A stretch of DNA of 63,188 nt, the filler included, from Collodictyon triciliatum (Eukaryota), in assembly GCA_043381765.1 (NCBI GenBank). It is 11 parts of 11 records of this genome, joined end to end, with 100 filler letters (N's around TTAATTAATTAA, not from the genome) between each part and the next. Parts side by side here need not be neighbours in the genome. Positions count along the whole stretch, not along the records: positions 24,371 to 30,500 come from JBHJMP010004687.1; 10 more parts are not named here. One strand, written 5' to 3'. Made by a program: the position numbers and the translations under genes. The notes beneath the pieces were generated by a model, which did not search any database, was not told the origin of the DNA, and saw nothing but the letters and a program-made list of their open reading frames with translations. Below, one piece after another: positions 19,105-30,311 of the stretch; position 1 is the first letter of the stretch, and every line of letters starts with the position of its first letter.

Positions 19105-22100
19105 TCACAGGTGCGAGTCATACGCCGAAAGATAAGCCGCGGATCTGCGGTGATGGGACTGAGCAGACGCAGCCGGGGCGGAAAGCGGCGCAGAATCCAG
19201 GAGCGAAACAAGATTCTCGTTGAGGCAAACAAGACAAGCCTGTTCCGGCACGCAATCGGCGTGGAATGCGTGGCCGCACGGGAAGGCAACAAGATTCGAG
19301 CCCATGGTGTGATCTGCAAGGCCGACTTCGCAGACTGGGCAGAGACTCCGCATGTCCACCACGGCACCCCAATGCTGGGCGCTGGCTTCTTCCCACTGGA
19401 ATGCGATTCCGCGGCCGTATTCGAAGCCGAGCGAGTGGATGGCTCCAGGCGCGGCGTTTGCTGTGAGAAATGCGAGCGTGTCGAGTTCGCCGCGGGTCTC
19501 CTTGTCCAGCAGGCCGCGCAAGGGCGGCGCAAGAGTGAGCGTCTTGATGGACCACAGATGGCTGTCAAGCACTTCCATCATGTTGCGCACAACCACGCGC
19601 TGATGTCGGTAGAGTTGGTGCAGATGCAGCAGTTTGCGGCAGATCACACGGGCTTCCCAGCTTGGGAGCGAAGCCTCGGACTGGAGTAGTTCCATCACAT
19701 ATGCAACCCCAAATTGCAGGACAAGGACATTCACCACCCGCTCCCATGTGATTCCGCTGGCGGAGTCTGCGCTCGCTCCTTGCATCGCTTTCTCAGCCCT
19801 GCTCTCTTGTTCTGGCTTGGAATCTGACTCCGACTCCAACTCTGACTCTGTTTCAGTTCGTTTGCTCAGATGCGCAAGCACCAGTTGCCACTCGACCGGC
19901 GTTCCGCTCTGTGCAAGGAATGCAAGCAATCCGCTCCAGTCGTCTGCACAGAAGAACAGATCCACGAGATCCGCGTGACGGCCGGATCGCTGGTACAAAA
20001 GCACAAGTCCTGCGTAGTAGCCTGTCTCTGCACACACTCGGGTGGCGTGCTCTGCGCTGTAGAAAAAGACGCCCGGATTCCCAAGGATTTGCATGAGGAG
20101 AGGATGGTGCGGCCATTCTGCAGATGCGCACTTGGATGCATTCGTGTTGCGGTGTTTGCTGTCGCTGCTGTCGAGCGGGCCAATGTGCGGAGGCGGATTC
20201 TCATGCAGGAGCGCTTCAATCCAGCAGTGGACAATAAACGTGTCCTGTCGGCTCACTAGGCGTGTTTCCATCAGGCGCATCAGAAACGACAGGACATGTT
20301 GAGGCTTGTGCGTTTGGATCCAGTGGTATGACAGGTGCGGGTGCAGCTTGTTTGCGGATCGAATGGCAAAGTCCACCACCGCAGAGGCGCTGATTCCCAC
20401 GATCACACGCTTGGCAACGCTCAAAACAGTGCACTGGTCGTCCAGATCGTTGAAGTACTCTACGGCGCTGAGGATGCTTTCGGTTCGGATCAGCGCAAGT
20501 ATGGCTTCGATAGCAGCTGTGTGCTCACGCGTCTTTTCGGCCTGTGCTACGATGGCCTCGATGCTACTCCACCGATGCTCTCGAATACATACATCGACGA
20601 TTCGTGCGTGGTCCAATACGTGAAAGTGCTTGCCGATAAATATGTGCTCTGCGCTTTCTGAGTCCTCACGAAGCATCCCAGATACAGATTGGTAGTCTCT
20701 GCAGATGAATAGCTCTGTGAGTTGTTGGGATATCGCATAAGAGTTGGTCTGATCAACTGCATTTGAATTGGCTTTAATTTCAGGGCCGCTCTGGGCTGTG
20801 CTTGCAATTACGTGGGCCTTTTCCTTTCCGAAATTGACGATACTGTCACCCTGGGAAGTTGGATTTGTGATGACATCCTCCAGTGTCGATGCTGGTGTAT
20901 TTTCAGCAGTAACGCTCACGGCTGGCAGAGCAGAACCTGCTGTTGCTGAGGAAGGCGCAGGGATGTTTGAAAGATTTTGTGGGGGTGAATTTCCGATATT
21001 TGCCTCCGGTACGTTAGCTTTGCGTCCCTGGTTGCTGCCTCCCGAACTTGCTGTGTGATGTGGCTTCAGAACGTAATCACCAAATATTGAAAACTTTCTC
21101 GATGCAGCTTGAGCAATTCCTTTCATCTGTTGTTGGGGTTGTTGGAATTGTTGGAATTGTTGTGATTGTTGTGATTGTTGGGATTGTTGTGATTGTTGGG
21201 ATTGTTGTGATTGTTGTGATTGTTGAGATTGTTGTGGTTGTTGTGATTGTTGTGATTGTTGTGGTTGTTGTGATTGTTGTGGTTGTTGCAAACTTTCTAT
21301 CTCCGTGTTTATGTCTGTTCCATTCAATACGTTGACATTACTATTGGGTACCGATACCTTGGGTTGGTCTGGTGTTATCGAGCCCACTTTTTCAGTATCT
21401 GCAACAATCGCATTAATATCGCCACTAGTCAGATTAGAAGTTACACTTCGCTTAGAAAATACCGGCGATTCGATCTGATGCTCAGTTGTGAGTCTTCCTT
21501 CGCCTTCCATCATAGGCGAGATCTGTGCACCAGCAGCCGGCTTACTATTTACCATTTTTTCGGTTGAATTCAAGTTTCTCTTGGGTATCAAAGCGGTATC
21601 CTCTCTTGGCAAGGGGGGTGATAGGATTGTGTCATCTCCTTGGCTACGCTGCGAACTTGGACCGGAGCTCAAGCTCGATGGTTGCGTATAAATTGTGGAT
21701 ACATTTGATGGAAGTACGGCAAAGTTTTGAGGTGCAAAAGCTGTGTTTGAAGATCCAGCTTGTGAGCTTGCCCTCTCACTCTTTGATACGATGCCCGGGG
21801 GAAGGATGTCTGTGACTCGAGACTTTGTACGCTTGGCCCGAGGTTTTCTGGCAAATGTAATGGATTCCAGGTCAAAGCCATCTCCGTGCCCGCTTAAACC
21901 TGCTGCTGAAACTTCCATATTAGATTGGTCCAGACCTTCAGCTTTTGGTTGCAAAGATTGTAATCCTGATGTTTCTAGATGTGGCGTGGTTGAGATTTGG
22001 TCTTGTGCAGGAACTTCTGAGTTTCCGGTAGCTTCCTGAGAGGCCGTTTTTTGAGTCAGTACCTCATTTGAAGAGATGGCCAAAGTGGCTGGGTCAGCCT

Positions 22101-24098
22101 GTTCGTCATCAAAAATCATCGATGGCGGGGCAGGTTCGATGTTAAGGTTGTACTTCTGCGCTATTTGCTGGTTTTATTTACAAAAAGAATAGATTAATAC
22201 TCCATAGATTGATGAACCAAAGGGTAGGATGAACTCTCACATTAAGAGAGCAAGTAGTTGTTGTGACAAAACAGATTGAGAGAAAAAGTGCAATATTCCA
22301 TGGGTTAGCATCAAGATATGGATTCACCTGGATGTCATCTAGCAAAGGGGAAAGGGTTAGGTCTTTGACTCGGCAACGCTCCACCTCACGGTACAGAGAC
22401 GTAATTGCACTGGGATTTTTCAGCCTGTACCGATTCAGTAAAGTGACGCATTTTTGGAATTGCGCTGACCGGATGTAATCCACAGCCAGAAGCTCAGGGT
22501 CATATGCTTGGACATGGCATATGGAAAAGCCACTGCGATACAGAACATAGTAGGAGTTCCCAACAGTGCACAAATCGACAAAGTTTTGGAGACCGGAATG
22601 GAGGATATTGATTTCGATATTGTTTACGTCGATGATACTGACATAGTTGTCTCCATATACAAGCATGTTATCGCAGAATGGGGCTACTCGACCGAAGTTG
22701 AATCGTGGAGGCACAGTCACTTTGAGCCCGCTTTCATCCAGGATTGGTACGCGTTGGTCACTCGTCACTTTAAAATTCAGGGTGTTGAGGACACGGCCTG
22801 TAGAAAGCTCTGCTACCCACACACGGTTCCCTGGGCGACTACTGAATAACACGCCTGAGCGAGACGGATGGAAACAGGCTCCGAAGAACCCGTCTCGGGT
22901 CTTTGTCCCAACCTGAATGGCGATGAGCTTCGTCAGCTCGAGGATGAAACTGCGTGTCAAGGTGGAGACGACTAAACATTCTGCGTTGTAGTCAAGTTGC
23001 ACAACACGCGAGTCGGACTGGAAAAGAACTTCGGTGTGGTTGCCCGACGCAAGGGACAATATTTCCCCAGTCACATCCCGGCCGAGAAACTGCCTCATGC
23101 CAAACTTTTTCGACTTGGAGATGCGTGTGATGCAGATGACACCATTGCTATCTGCAGAGAAAAGCCTGCGCCCTGCGTCATCCCATACAATATCTGTGAT
23201 CTCAGCGTCCTTGTGCTCTTGCACTCGATATAATAGCTATGCGTGGGAATAATTATTCAGACATTTCGAGTTTAATCTATATATTTATGATTCATATAGG
23301 GAAATATAAACCAACCACACGTGGGTTCAAGCCACAGTAAATAAAGTGGACAAAAAACAAACAACAACCACGCATACTCACCCTGTCTTTGCTCTTCATA
23401 TCTTCGATGGCCATCAACATAATCACCACTTGACCGCCCTCTAATGCCATAGCAACGATGCGCTCGTCTAGAGCAAAACGAATGCAAGTTACTGCGCCTT
23501 TCGACTGAGGAATCGGACGCAAGTGCATAAACTTCATGTCGCTACGATTGAAGTAGTAAAGTGCTGCAGAGGAACCTCCCAACACAAGGTAGTTTTGCGA
23601 GCAAGCAACTGCAGAAAACTTGACCTTGGACGAGCTTATTGGCTCCGGATACACAGTCAATCTCATCACTGGCCCTGGAAGCAGAAGTCCGCCATCAGAC
23701 TCGGACGAATCGTCCCCATCAAAAGTCGACGTTGTGGTTGCGGTTGCTGAAATCGATGAACCGTAACTTTCGCTTTCTGTGTGCGTGTTCGTGCGTGCAG
23801 ATTGTGAATCGGTGGCGTCTGTTTCGGTTCCTGTTTCAGTTGTTGTAGTGGCGTCCGTGGTTTCATCGCCGTCGGCTGAGTCAGCATGTGTTTCAGCGTG
23901 TGTTTCTGTCTGGGTTTCTGTTTGTATTTCTGATTCGGACTCGGCTTGTGTTTCTGTCTGGGTTTCTGTTTGTATTTCTGATTCGGACTCGGCTTGCGTT
24001 TCTGTTTGTGAAGTACTTTGGGAGCCGCTCTCTGCTCTTGTCTCAGCTTGCGTTTCGGTCGCGGTGTGGCTCGTTGATTCGTCGTTGGATTCGTCCAT
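19105..24098 (-). CDS. HPS5/TECPR2-like protein: N-terminal WD40 propeller, long low-complexity linker, helical region and C-terminal RING-H2; 3 exons, about 1560 aa
   Basis: Exons 24098-23382, 23236-22328 and 22167-19105. Motifs include FSAVACSQNYLVLGGSSAALY, DSRVVQLDY..LVVSTLTRS, VGTKTRDGFFGACF and RPGNRVWVA, as in the HPS5/TECPR2 N-terminus. The C-terminus reads CPVC..FPCGHAFHADC..CLVC. Confidence 0.8.
21133..21290 (-). repeat. Coding 9-bp repeat giving (QQS/QQP)n in the HPS5-like protein
   Basis: TTGTTGTGA-type units on the + strand translate to QQPQQSQQPQQSQQS... Confidence 0.9.
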
Positions 24099-24199
24099 TC
24101 TGTTAGTTTGAAGATCGCTGTCTGGCGACCTTACGGAAAATGCCTTGTTTTATACACGACTGTTTTTGTTGTTTTTGTTTTTTTGTTTTTTTGTTTTTT

Positions 24200-24270
<71 letters not shown>

Positions 24271-24370
24271 NNNNNNNNNNNNNNNNNNNNNNNNNNNNNN
24301 NNNNNNNNNNNNNNTTAATTAATTAANNNNNNNNNNNNNNNNNNNNNNNNNNNNNNNNNNNNNNNNNNNN

Positions 24371-24602: not shown

Positions 24603-25234
24603 GAATTGACATTGCACCGATACTTTGGGGATGTGATGGACGATAGTCTCTTTTCCCTGGCAGAACCGTTAGAATCCGGCCAGACAAGCAGATTCTGCTC
24701 GAAAATGGCAGAGATTAATGGCGTTCACATTGTGGGATCTTTATTTGAGGTATCACGGAAATAATTTTTCCAGAATGCAGCAGAGTGGATTTTTTTTTTT
24801 TTGCTGTTGAATTATTCTTTTGTTGTAGTTATATGATTCATTTTATCTAATTTGTGCTATTTCATATCACGAAATTGAATGTCAAATGATATGTGTGAGA
24901 AATATTTAAATTTTCGTCTTAAAAAAGCAGGCATAATCCAGTGCAAGAATATAGATCAAAAAAATATTTAGATTATACGATTTCCCTCCCATAACTCATA
25001 TATAGGATGCCACGCATTTGAAGCCCAATCTACGCTTTAACACAGCTGTGATTTATGGTCCCGATGGGAAAATGGTTGGGTACACCCGTAAACAGCACAT
25101 CCCAAGAGGAACAGGTTATGAGGAAGAGTTCTACTTCCAACCTGGAGACTCTGATTATCCCGTACATGACCTTGGCTTTTTGAGAATAGGCATTCCAACG
25201 TGCTACGACCAGGTGATTTGTTTGCCGACACAAT

Positions 25235-25323
<89 letters not shown>

Positions 25324-27272
25324 CGAAACCCCAGTTACTCATTACATACCATTTATCCAAATCGGCTTATTGATTATGTTCATACACTTTTAATCACCAG
25401 AATCATAATAATAATTTTAAAATAAAAACGCCTTAATATAGTGGTTTCCCGAACTGGCACGAATCTACGCTATGAAAGGGGCCGAAGTACTTCTTTATCC
25501 TACAGCAATCGGGAGTGAACCTAATTATCCCGGCCTGAATACTCAACCCATGTGGCAGAATATGATGGTTTCTCATGCGATTGCAAATGGTGCATTTCAA
25601 AAATACTGTTTTTACTCCATTTTGATGACAAGAGTTACAATCATGGATTTCGCCCTCCATTGATGGATACTGCTCATGTTTTATGTTACTCAGCATTCTC
25701 CATATAAATTAAACAGGTCTCTTTGTCGGAGCAGTCAATAGGGTTGGAAAAGAAACCCTTATTGATTTTTATGGTTCCTCATTTGTATGTGAGCCTACAG
25801 GCAGGATAATTGCCCAGGTTTCGCATGGCCCATATATATTTTATGCTCATATCACAGTAAGAGCAGCAAATATTGCAAATACTATATTACTAGACATGAG
25901 TGTAATAACCTTTAGGCAGCACCTAACAAGTCCGAAGTGATTGTGGCTACCTTAGACTTCTCTGTCCAACGATTCTGGAGGGACTTGTTCCCATTAATCA
26001 ACCAAAGGAAACCTCATACTTATCAGGATTTAACACGAGTTTCATGTAATTTATTATTTAGGTGGTATTTTAAGACCTCACGCTATATCTCCTTGGTCAA
26101 AATCCGACAATAATAGTTTATTACTATATTTTATGTCTCCGGTAGTTAATTTTTAATTTTTTTTGTTTCTTTTTCTCAGTTGAAGGTCTACCTAAGGTGA
26201 AAGCTATTCTACTTGTTGCTGGACAAGGAACAAGGCTACGACCCTTAACTGATGAATGTCCAAAGTGCATGGTCCAGTATCAAGTGCGTTTAGGGCATCC
26301 AAGCCACGATTACTTCGACTCTGATATCAAATAATTACTGTTTTTATTTTCCTTTTGATATGACGAAACAAAATGAAAAGAAAAAAAAAGAGGCAGATGT
26401 AATGATTTGTGAGTGTTCTTAAGGGGAGAATGATAATCAACACAGAAGATGCTTCAGTAACATTAATATTATCTCCTTCATCTTCCTTAACTAATTCTTA
26501 TTTTCCCCTAATGTTTCCTTTTTTTTTTTCCCTCCCATTAATTATATAGACACGCCCTATTGTCGATTACATTCTTTCATCTTTAAGGCAGAACAATATT
26601 CATGATATCGTGATGATAAAAGGGTATTTCATTTTGGTTTACTATATTTATTGTGCGAGTTTTTTTTTTTTGTTTGCTATTTTCTGCTTACTTCAACTGA
26701 GAATCATTAGCCAAAGCCTCAAGAATTAAACTTCATTGATGAAATCACTATCTTATTTGATGAAAGCTATCGAGAAGATGTCCTCCACAGAGACGGAGTG
26801 AGGGAGAGAATCAACCCTCGGTATGCATTAACAAATATGGTTGGTACTCTTTTCTCTGCTGAAGAAGAGTTAATAACGACAAAGGTTGGGTTTTATTTAT
26901 ACTGACATGAAATTTCGAGAGGTGCTATTTCACTCCACTCGATCCATATGATTTTTGATTGAGAGTCTTTTAGCATAAACCGCGACGTTTACTCTCCACC
27001 CTCAAAACAGGATGTCGTTATGTCCTACGGAGACATTGTTTACCACCCAAGTATTGTAAAGAAACTGCTTGAATCGGATGCTGATGTGGCTGTGGTGGTT
27101 GATTTGAAATGGAGAGAGCTATGGGAAGGGCGAATGGAAGACCCGTTGCTCGATGCCGAGACCATGAAATTAAACGGGAACCGCATCATCGAACTAGGGA
27201 AAAAGCCAAAGTCATTCGAAGACATACAGGTATATCCATCATTTCGAAGCATATTATATATTATGAAAAGTA

Positions 27273-27367
<95 letters not shown>

Positions 27368-27815
27368 TATTATTACTATTATTATTACTATTATTATTAC
27401 TATTATTATTATTACTATTATTATTGCTATTTTATTAAATCTTTTGAAACAGGCCCATGAAATCTTAAATTATACACGCCTATCTTATCTCCTATCGCAT
27501 AATATCTGGTTAAATGAAAAACACCATTGCTCTTTAAAATCTAATCTTCCGCACATAAAATTCCAGGGTCAGTACATCGGGCTAGTTAAGTTCTCATCCA
27601 GGATTCTTCCCAAAATCCGTGCGTACTACCACTCTCTGGACCGCCACAAAACGTATGACGGGAAATCTTTCGACTTGATGTACATGACCTCGTTTCTGCA
27701 AAGTATTGCAGACAACCTCACCGACTTGACCGCCGTCTTTATCGAAGGAGGTTGGACAGAAGTGGACTCGGTCCAGGACCTTGAGTACAAAGTCGATGTC
27801 TCCTGGTTTAAATAA
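24603..27815 (+). CDS. Fusion of a nitrilase/C-N hydrolase (N-carbamoylputrescine amidase-like) domain and a Cj1416/LicC-like NTP (cytidylyl) transferase domain; at least 10 exons, 5' truncated
   Basis: Exons 24603-24749, 25006-25212, 25442-25589, 25717-25817, 25916-26045, 26180-26283, 26550-26623, 26767-26884, 27011-27229 and 27567-27815, all GT-AG and phase-compatible. Nitrilase triad: E(LTLHRYF), K(QHIP), C(YDQ|WFPE). Transferase motifs: KAILLVAGQGTRLRPLT..PKCMV, SYGDIVY, QYIGLVKFS, WTEVDSVQDL. Confidence 0.85.
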
Positions 27816-28866: not shown

Positions 28867-30311
28867 ATGTTTGTTGTCGTTGCTTTTGGGTTCGTTGCAT
28901 TAGGACTTTTCCTATGGTATTCTCTGCGTATGGGGAAGAGGCATAGAAAGACAACAGCTGATACACAATATCTGTTTAAAAGGTACTTACTCTTGCCAAA
29001 AAAAAAAAAATTATCAATCAAACACCTCCACTAATTCTTTTCTCCAGTTCTCTCTTACTGATATTTATATACTTATATTTCAAAATAGGCGTCCGATGAA
29101 CTCTCCATATATCCCCGCATTCGCTGTTGCTCGAGCAAAGGTAGACCAATAGAATCAAATAAAAGTGTAATTATGCCCACCCCCTCACCTTTGAAACTAC
29201 GTGAATAATCAGAATGTAAAGAATTATGAAAACTGCTGAAATAAAAGCGTTATCATTTTGAAGAAGTATCAAAAGAGTATTTATCTGTTTAATTTATGAT
29301 GCACAATTACCCACTTATCATCGAAGGGTCGACGGCCGACCATGGAAGATAATCATTCCATCGAAATCGCAGTGGACATAGGCGTTCCTGGTTTTCATGA
29401 AGTGTCTTTCGCAAGTGTCTTTGATGGCCATGCTGGCGAAGTACGAGTGCACTGAACACCATGACTTAAAAAAGAATGTTCACCTTTGGATGACATCATA
29501 TAGATAATGGAATCAATTCAGTTGTATCTCCCCTTTCCGATTTGTTTTTCATTGTCATGAATTATTTCGTTAATCGTGCATGATTATACCCCTTACATAG
29601 GAAGCATCGAAGTATGCGCAAGAAAATCTGCACCGAAACATAATAGCTGCATTTCAAAAACAACATTCACTTAAGGAATGCGTCGATGTTGAAAAAGCCA
29701 TCAAAGCCGGCTTTGCAAAGACCGATTCAGATTTTCTTGACTTTGCTCGACAGGCACAGTATGAATATTCCATATTTGCCTATTTCTTTTCTTTATTTTT
29801 CTTCTATGAATTTTCATATTTTTACAACATTTAACACTTAATACACATGACAGTAATATTTCCTCCTTTTTATTTATTCTCATGTCACATGAATCTAACA
29901 TGGGATACCATACAAATAGAATGATAGAAGAATTGAGAACCTATTCAAATAATCCAATTATCGACAAACTATTTCAGGATATCTAGCGGGTCGACATGTG
30001 TGTCTGCATTCATCACGCATAACAGACTTATCGTGGCAAACATAGGCGATTCGCGCTCCATCCTCTGCCTCGACCGAATGAGAGCACACACCCCTGGCGG
30101 TCATTCCCTCTCAGAAACAAACATCCCGTTTGTCGAAATGTCCATCGACCACAAGCCGAACCGGCCCGATGAGCAGGCCCGTATCGAACGTGACGGCGGA
30201 TTGGTCGTCCATTTCGGGTGTTGGCGTGTTCAAGGTGTGCTAGCCACAAGCCGCTCGTTCGGGGACAAAGACTTGAAGAAGTTTGTCATATCAGAGCCGG
30301 AGTTGATTGAG
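28867..30311 (+). CDS. PP2C/PPM-family Ser/Thr phosphatase with an N-terminal membrane anchor (PPM1L-like), 3' truncated
   Basis: Starts MFVVVAFGFVALGLFLWYSL. Spliced motifs are K|GRRPTMED, VFDGHAG, SGSTC, VANIGDSR, SIDHKP and RVQGVLATSRSFGD. Confidence 0.88.

Follow-up and report, generated by a model that had tools for sequence, protein, structure and literature searches.

Can a eukaryote make the activated phosphoramidate known from Campylobacter? This question is raised by a spliced gene in a stretch of 63,188 nucleotides (the window) from the protist Collodictyon triciliatum (GenBank assembly GCA_043381765.1), in which 11 parts of the genome are joined end to end. Amide N-phosphorylation and the decoration of sugars with phosphoramidate are characterised in Campylobacter. 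In Campylobacter jejuni, the L-glutamine kinase Cj1418, the CTP:phosphoglutamine cytidylyltransferase Cj1416 and the hydrolase Cj1417 act in this order, one step each, and Cj1415 is a 3'-kinase of the same O-methyl phosphoramidate (MeOPN) pathway. The MeOPN group is reportedly a phage receptor, to go by the title of a cited reference. A first-pass annotation of the window had read five exons as a Cj1416-type cytidylyltransferase. These exons form the 3' half of a longer gene, in which the transferase is fused to a nitrilase, and homologues of Cj1418 and Cj1417 are present elsewhere in the genome as separate spliced genes. With a probability of roughly 0.6, the three proteins make cytidine diphosphoramidate as a donor of P-NH2 groups for a surface glycan or lipid, and the nitrilase is a passenger.

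Family of the cytidylyltransferase domain

A profile of close relatives was used to fetch 80 prokaryotic loci, 70 of which score above 195 bits and 10 low. The high-scoring loci encode a PPDK_N/PEP-utiliser kinase in 61 of 70 cases, a peptidase C26 in 64 and both in 60. An adenosine 5'-phosphosulfate (APS)-kinase-like gene is found at 31 of these 70 loci and a methyltransferase gene at 16, while neither kinase nor C26 occurs at the low-scoring ones (0/10). By predicted family, this gene set is that of Cj1418-Cj1417-Cj1416(-Cj1415), and the cassettes sit among glycan genes. Several of the prokaryotic loci (L009, L013, L043 and others) encode kinases of about 1000-1060 amino acids with an extra N-terminal NTP-transferase domain.

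The window domain keeps all 33 invariant columns of the family. A strict signature pattern is matched by the window protein and by 27 of the 70 cassette transferases, compared with none of 60 low-scoring NTP transferases. Campylobacterales sequences were used as stand-ins for Cj1416 itself (8 of 151 genomes matched, 4 fetched), and the window domain shares 40.7-46.6% identity over 220-254 amino acids with all four of their cassette transferases. The Campylobacterales cassette L234 has the order methyltransferase-methyltransferase-kinase-C26-transferase-x-APS-kinase-like; the Collodictyon proteins are identical to its products at 40.7% (transferase, 253 amino acids), 48.7% (kinase core, 341 amino acids) and 28.9% (hydrolase, 235 amino acids). 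For Campylobacter, orthologues have been defined by more than 35% similarity and more than 75% coverage (PMC3907429; this and the other papers given by number are cited for the accessible portions of their text). The window transferase lies above both values against the Campylobacterales stand-ins, not against Cj1416 itself. From these comparisons, the domain is classified as Cj1416-type and not as LicC or PntC, as the first-pass annotation had proposed. A name used for such an enzyme in the Carin-5 phage paper was set aside, being an HHpred label that the paper itself rejects.

Structure and splicing of the fusion gene

The transferase half consists of five exons and four GT..AG introns, giving a single open frame of 254 codons plus stop that contains every peptide quoted in the first-pass annotation. 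What had been taken as the start of the gene is a splice acceptor at position 26180, and the exon opening there has no start codon. Upstream, five nitrilase exons lie on the same strand and are spliced in frame; the two halves meet at a phase-1 intron and read as one continuous frame (Table 1). The five-exon model is thus accurate for the 3' half, the nitrilase fusion having been overlooked. A standalone transferase with its own start is ruled out, as no in-frame ATG precedes transferase exon 1. The nitrilase part (PF00795, closest to TIGR03381) is visible from about position 24603, and the true 5' end of the gene probably lies in the gap at 24271-24370. The introns are AT-rich, with a GC fraction of 0.28 compared with 0.45 in the exons.

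Splicing was checked by aligning four sequencing runs (X1-X4) to positions 25330-27270. One study is the source of both X1 and X2, whose RNA nature is a guess, though their joints are GT..AG. The junction from 26045 to 26180 is crossed directly by one X1 contig and one X2 contig, that is, in two of the four runs. From there the X2 contig runs on across transferase exons 1-4, with a loose end that fits the beginning of exon 5, so that three of the four transferase introns appear as GT..AG joints and the fourth through this loose end. Run X3 gave one joint only and X4 no alignment. Both cDNA runs carry T>A at position 26582, a synonymous change at a third codon position.

Transferase exon 4 alone matches 174 of 256 candidate proteins at E≤0.001, far beyond chance. 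Its best match is a complete open reading frame (ORF) of 540 amino acids in a Diphylleia rotans transcript (P0001), which contains both domains; 369 of 488 residues are identical to the window fusion (76%), with one gap, at the linker. The open frame, the cDNA contigs across the junction and the Diphylleia protein together establish the nitrilase-cytidylyltransferase fusion as a real, spliced gene. Among the matches examined, this predicted pairing of amidase and cytidylyltransferase is confined to the window genome and Diphylleia: no further fusion was found among the best 120 of 1317 matches, nor among the best 150 of 21,046, the latter a weak negative in which the Diphylleia protein itself does not appear. 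A search of the ESM Atlas gave no usable match to the fusion, and a phage collection gave no match. Copromyxa protea has the transferase alone (P0009), which together with a form fused to glutathione S-transferase suggests that the partners of this domain are interchangeable. The latter form is the P0209/P0367 cluster, present in EukProt and in metagenomes.

Partner genes in the genome

The genome assembly of the window is fragmented into 14,576 contigs. A cassette kinase query identified a Cj1418-like kinase at E 5e-40 on contigs C7436 and C6215. C7436 carries five exons with GT..AG introns, encoding 645 residues without a stop, and the His domain lies on C6215. The kinase has PPDK_N and phospho-His domains with the His motif present, scores 755 bits against the profile and keeps 85 of the 89 invariant columns covered; three of the four differences are misalignments in a region missing from the model. 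Its orthologue in Diphylleia, P0245, is complete, with 88 of 90 such columns retained. The glutamine-kinase homologue on which the first-pass reading depended is thus present.

A Cj1417-like class I amidotransferase/C26 hydrolase is encoded on contig C1177 by three exons with GT..AG introns; it contains the Cys and His-Pro-Glu motifs, and all 10 of the invariant columns are conserved. Neither the Pfam family nor a bacterial query detected this gene, which was found with P0384, a query from a lineage of proteins that combine all three domains (next section). Since it was missed twice, other negatives in this genome are weak, as family searches can miss spliced genes. This applies to the Cj1415-like 3'-kinase, which was not found with a cassette query that reached E 0.018 in this fragmented, spliced genome. 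The only APS-kinase gene found, on C53, is presumably an ATP-sulfurylase/APS-kinase fusion, judging by its motifs. Of the Cj1415-Cj1418 set considered in the first pass, kinase, C26 and transferase homologues are therefore present and the Cj1415-like kinase was not found, so that the evidence stops short of the complete MeOPN route.

Three-in-one proteins and giant viruses

C26-transferase-kinase fusions of 1265-1288 amino acids, as well as partial forms, occur among cluster representatives. This three-in-one set (L190, L191, P0389, P0390 and P0453) derives from giant-virus metagenome-assembled genomes and unnamed marine contigs. Two of the genes lie on giant-virus contigs amid glycosyltransferase, nucleotide-sugar-transporter and LicD genes. 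An ESM Atlas search with a three-in-one protein gave no clusters other than bacterial or unrecorded ones, all below 0.9.

For a concatenated three-domain tree, 30 rows were picked from 48 (64 loci minus 16 near-redundant ones), the Diphylleia row being without C26. Collodictyon and Diphylleia form a group with six three-in-one proteins, supported at 100/100 (LG+G4), and FastTree on the 48 rows recovers the same grouping with a support of 99. Among single domains, the kinase gives an SH-aLRT support of 96 and C26 one of 78; trees of the transferase alone leave the origin unresolved and do not place protists and three-in-one proteins together. Many rows are compositionally uneven, and long-branch attraction may therefore contribute to the grouping. 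A C-terminal tail motif, defined post hoc from eukaryote and virus rows, is found in 10 of 12 of these rows, including most three-in-one proteins, and is missing from all 64 named prokaryotic loci whose tail could be read. A lineage of donor enzymes shared by eukaryotes and giant viruses is likely on this evidence. The architectures differ, as the window genome has the three activities in three genes and a nitrilase in the N-terminal position.

Proposed pathway and its acceptor

By analogy with Campylobacter, the kinase would convert glutamine and ATP to glutamine phosphate, the window domain would form CDP-glutamine from glutamine phosphate and CTP, and the C26 hydrolase would release cytidine diphosphoramidate and glutamate. 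Some transferase would then place the P-NH2 group on a glycan or lipid, where it would probably lack a methyl group. Such unmethylated forms of phosphoramidate have been noted for the lipopolysaccharides of Xanthomonas and Shewanella (PMC3907429). Cj1418 is described as a glutamine kinase (PMC10971088), and Cj1418-Cj1417-Cj1416-Cj1415 as yielding CDP-phosphoramidate 3'-phosphate from glutamine, ATP and CTP (PMC11800397); the single-step order is also stated in a preprint on archaeal Borg elements (bioRxiv 10.1101/2024.11.05.622173). It is likely that the cell makes cytidine diphosphoramidate, and a surface glycan or lipid is the most likely acceptor. The P-N chemistry suggested in the first pass has gained homologues of three enzymes, whereas all of the chemistry, like the acceptor, is something we infer.

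Several observations weigh against this proposal. Roughly 90-100 kinase residues between C7436 and C6215 are missing from the assembly, so the kinase gene is not shown intact. The transferase, kinase and C26 genes are unlinked, so that their co-function rests on homology. A possible phosphoramidate transferase is encoded by a spliced LicD-family gene on C5212 (L221), but LicD genes are common in eukaryotes, and a giant-virus LicD query gave no match in the genome and did not retrieve the C5212 gene. TagF-like transferases (PF04464) gave 0 candidates in the genome, where no genome-wide Cj1421/1422 search was made. The pathway proteins contain no strong transmembrane stretch; a cytosolic donor would therefore need a transporter, and none was found. 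Genes alone do not guarantee the product either: among 13 Campylobacter strains that have cj1416-1418 orthologues, 4 showed no signal of MeOPN (PMC3907429). Cj1416, moreover, is promiscuous with Mn2+ (PMC12275187).

The same three enzymes might instead supply cytidine diphosphoramidate or CDP-glutamine for a small molecule in the cytosol, for protein modification or for an energy store based on P-N. This is unlikely, although the enzymes look cytosolic, neither an acceptor transferase nor a Cj1415-like kinase was found in the genome, and eukaryotes already use P-N phosphagens (PMC6429109). The genomic settings point to the surface: the prokaryotic cassettes and both giant-virus fusions lie amid glycan genes, one of the latter immediately ahead of a LicD gene, and the protist has its own spliced LicD-family gene.

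The nitrilase domain

The best solved-structure match of the nitrilase is the N-carbamoylputrescine amidohydrolase (CPA) of Medicago (PDB 5H8I, E 8e-50), an enzyme of the AguB type (TIGR03381). The domain keeps the Glu-Lys-Cys triad, the narrow putrescine pocket and the equivalents of Glu132, Glu187, Tyr54, Tyr130, Pro125 and Trp162. In plant CPA, Glu187 sets the substrate's charge and length (PMC4812014). The Diphylleia protein shows the changes Trp159 to Tyr, Asp190 to Tyr and Trp277 to Phe and, at 242 bits, lies below the curated TIGR03381 cut-off of 410. The fusion to a nucleotidyltransferase is a further difference from AguB in both protists.

Metagenome loci of related nitrilases contain an arginine decarboxylase or agmatine deiminase in 27 of 80 cases and a cassette gene in none of the 80, many of these loci being short. 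The bacterial nitrilases nearest to the protist domain (L090, L094, L098, L100, L101, L103-L105, L109 and L126) precede a metallo-beta-lactamase-fold gene and a PTS IIC/IID fusion, not polyamine genes, and their substrate may therefore differ. The Collodictyon genome contains agmatine deiminase (C1247:363-1505 and C8113:2243-2425), and, taken with the amidase, this suggests that the protist makes putrescine by way of agmatine. Plants have been called unique among eukaryotes for the three-step agmatine route (PMC6447857).

A standalone amidase paralogue on C2991:1809-3890 (L169) has eight exons, one GC donor and the intron positions of the fused copy; a duplicate of its last exon lies on C14005:706-822 (L170). 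Nitrilase identities are 76% between window and paralogue, 76% between window and Diphylleia and 81% between paralogue and Diphylleia. In the best tree, the standalone copy is nested with the fusion of Diphylleia (support 94/89), a topology under which the fusion would be ancestral; both alternative orders survive the approximately unbiased (AU) test (p 0.07 and 0.09).

Most likely, the nitrilase half has remained an N-carbamoylputrescine hydrolase that is carried as a passenger in the fusion. As a genuine Cj1417-like hydrolase is present, the nitrilase is not needed as its replacement, and its candidacy as a Cj1417 substitute was dropped once the C26 gene surfaced. A direct part in the pathway, by deacylating the CDP-amide or by supplying putrescine or another amide for a polyamine-linked phosphoramidate, is improbable. 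In favour of such a part, the fusion has been retained in two species despite a 24% difference between their proteins, its hydrolase-then-transferase order repeats that of the three-in-one proteins with the nitrilase in the C26 position, the standalone amidase would free the fused copy, and the branch of the fused copy is the longer one (0.26 vs 0.17). The retained narrow putrescine pocket, the lack of any cassette beside prokaryotic nitrilases of the clade and the occurrence of the transferase alone or with glutathione S-transferase argue for the passenger.

LicC and PntC

LicC (PDB 1JYK) and PntC (PDB 6PD1) share the NTP-transferase superfamily with the window domain. LicC is even its best solved-structure match, and databases tag many relatives as 'choline kinase' or 'phosphocholine cytidylyltransferase family'. 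Membership would show in a full-length match and, for PntC, a phosphoenolpyruvate (PEP) mutase partner, whereas only weak, partial matches were found: LicC aligns only with profile positions 1-100, which is the N-terminal portion, and in PntC a gap of 10 residues falls on the signature block. The partners in the cassettes differ in kind, and the kinase and C26 partners are present in the protist. PEP mutase, raised as an alternative in the first pass, was searched for in the genome through PF13714, and the sole candidate is an isocitrate lyase; spliced genes can be missed, which makes this a weak negative. The domain does not group with LicC or PntC, and a LicC-, PntC- or CpgD-like enzyme activating phosphocholine, a phosphonate or phosphoglycerate is thus quite improbable.

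Relation to known systems

The window genome resembles Campylobacter jejuni in its homologues of the first three MeOPN steps, with conserved catalytic columns. It differs in that the genes are nuclear, spliced and unlinked and the transferase stands behind a nitrilase. Neither a eukaryotic Cj1416-1418 route nor such a fusion was found in the literature searched, mostly open papers with subscription papers largely outside its scope, in agreement with the first-pass statement that such chemistry had not been described in eukaryotes. The accessible part of a 2019 review gives the glutamine-kinase route for Campylobacter only (PMC6429109). The nearest published report, in its accessible text, is a Cj1418/1417/1416 set predicted outside bacteria and amid glycoconjugate genes, in the Borg elements of archaea (bioRxiv 10.1101/2024.11.05.622173). 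These are clustered genes of an archaeal extrachromosomal element, unlike those of the protist, and likewise a prediction only. The protist genes would carry a known pathway into another domain of life and add a new fusion.

If the proposal is correct, a spliced and transcribed core in a deep-branching protist extends phosphoramidate chemistry to eukaryotes, the culturable Diphylleia offers a target for 31P/15N nuclear magnetic resonance (NMR), and surface modification of hosts and giant viruses is linked through shared genes. A far-reaching version, speculative and with little probability, is an old donor lineage common to scattered protists (collodictyonid relatives, a dictyostelid and probably picoeukaryotes) and giant viruses, with P-N glycans or lipids that have gone unrecognised and a fused amidase that would yield a putrescine-linked phosphoramidate, a charged and so far undescribed head group.

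Genomic context

Contamination by bacteria or an erroneous gene model is barely credible: relatives are nearly all prokaryotic and the assembly is fragmented, but all three genes contain GT..AG introns, AT-rich in the window gene, spliced cDNA exists, orthologues occur in Diphylleia, a PP2C gene lies on the contig of the fusion gene, and an HPS5-like gene lies across the gap. The neighbours of the fusion gene, including a NACHT-WD40 gene, are eukaryotic by predicted family (Table 1).

Table 1. Positions in the window of the fusion gene parts and of other genes
Feature	Position	Strand	Remarks
Gap, read as assembly gap	24271-24370		Likely hides first 1-2 nitrilase exons (some 43 codons), judging from the paralogue and Diphylleia
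Nitrilase exon, first visible	24603-24749	+	Catalytic Glu 24603-24605; acceptor site inferred from paralogue
Nitrilase exon	25006-25212	+	Catalytic Lys 25090-25092, Cys 25201-25203; PF00795, TIGR03381-like
Nitrilase exon	25442-25589	+	Equivalent of putrescine-binding Glu187 at 25517-25519
Nitrilase exon	25717-25817	+	
Nitrilase exon, last	25916-26045	+	Phase 1 end
Fusion intron, GT..AG	26046-26179	+	134 nt; absent from cDNA contigs of runs X1 and X2
Linker and cytidylyltransferase exon 1	26180-26283	+	Glycine-rich NTP-binding loop, conserved Lys; PF00483
Cytidylyltransferase exon 2	26550-26623	+	
Cytidylyltransferase exon 3	26767-26884	+	
Cytidylyltransferase exon 4	27011-27229	+	First conserved Asp 27032-27034; Cj1416-type signature block from 27110
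Cytidylyltransferase exon 5	27567-27815	+	Second conserved Asp 27765-27767; eukaryote/virus-type tail; stop
HPS5-like gene	19105-24149	-	Beta-propeller, TPR, RING; across gap, head to head with fusion gene
PP2C phosphatase gene	28870-30300	+	Directly 3' of fusion gene, same contig
Intronless ORF, 1923 amino acids	30740-36511	-	NACHT, pentapeptide repeats, WD40 propellers; NLR-like architecture
UDP-glucose pyrophosphorylase family	1362-1817		Gene piece
RING finger	10776-11375		Gene piece
Amino-acid transporter	16104-16700		Gene piece
Profilin	39708-40322		Gene piece
Band-7	53593-54318		Gene piece
CBS	61061-61735		Gene piece

The gene pieces at the end of Table 1 belong to ordinary eukaryotic genes. 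The N-terminal part of the HPS5-like gene product contains tandem repeats rich in Thr, Glu and Gln.

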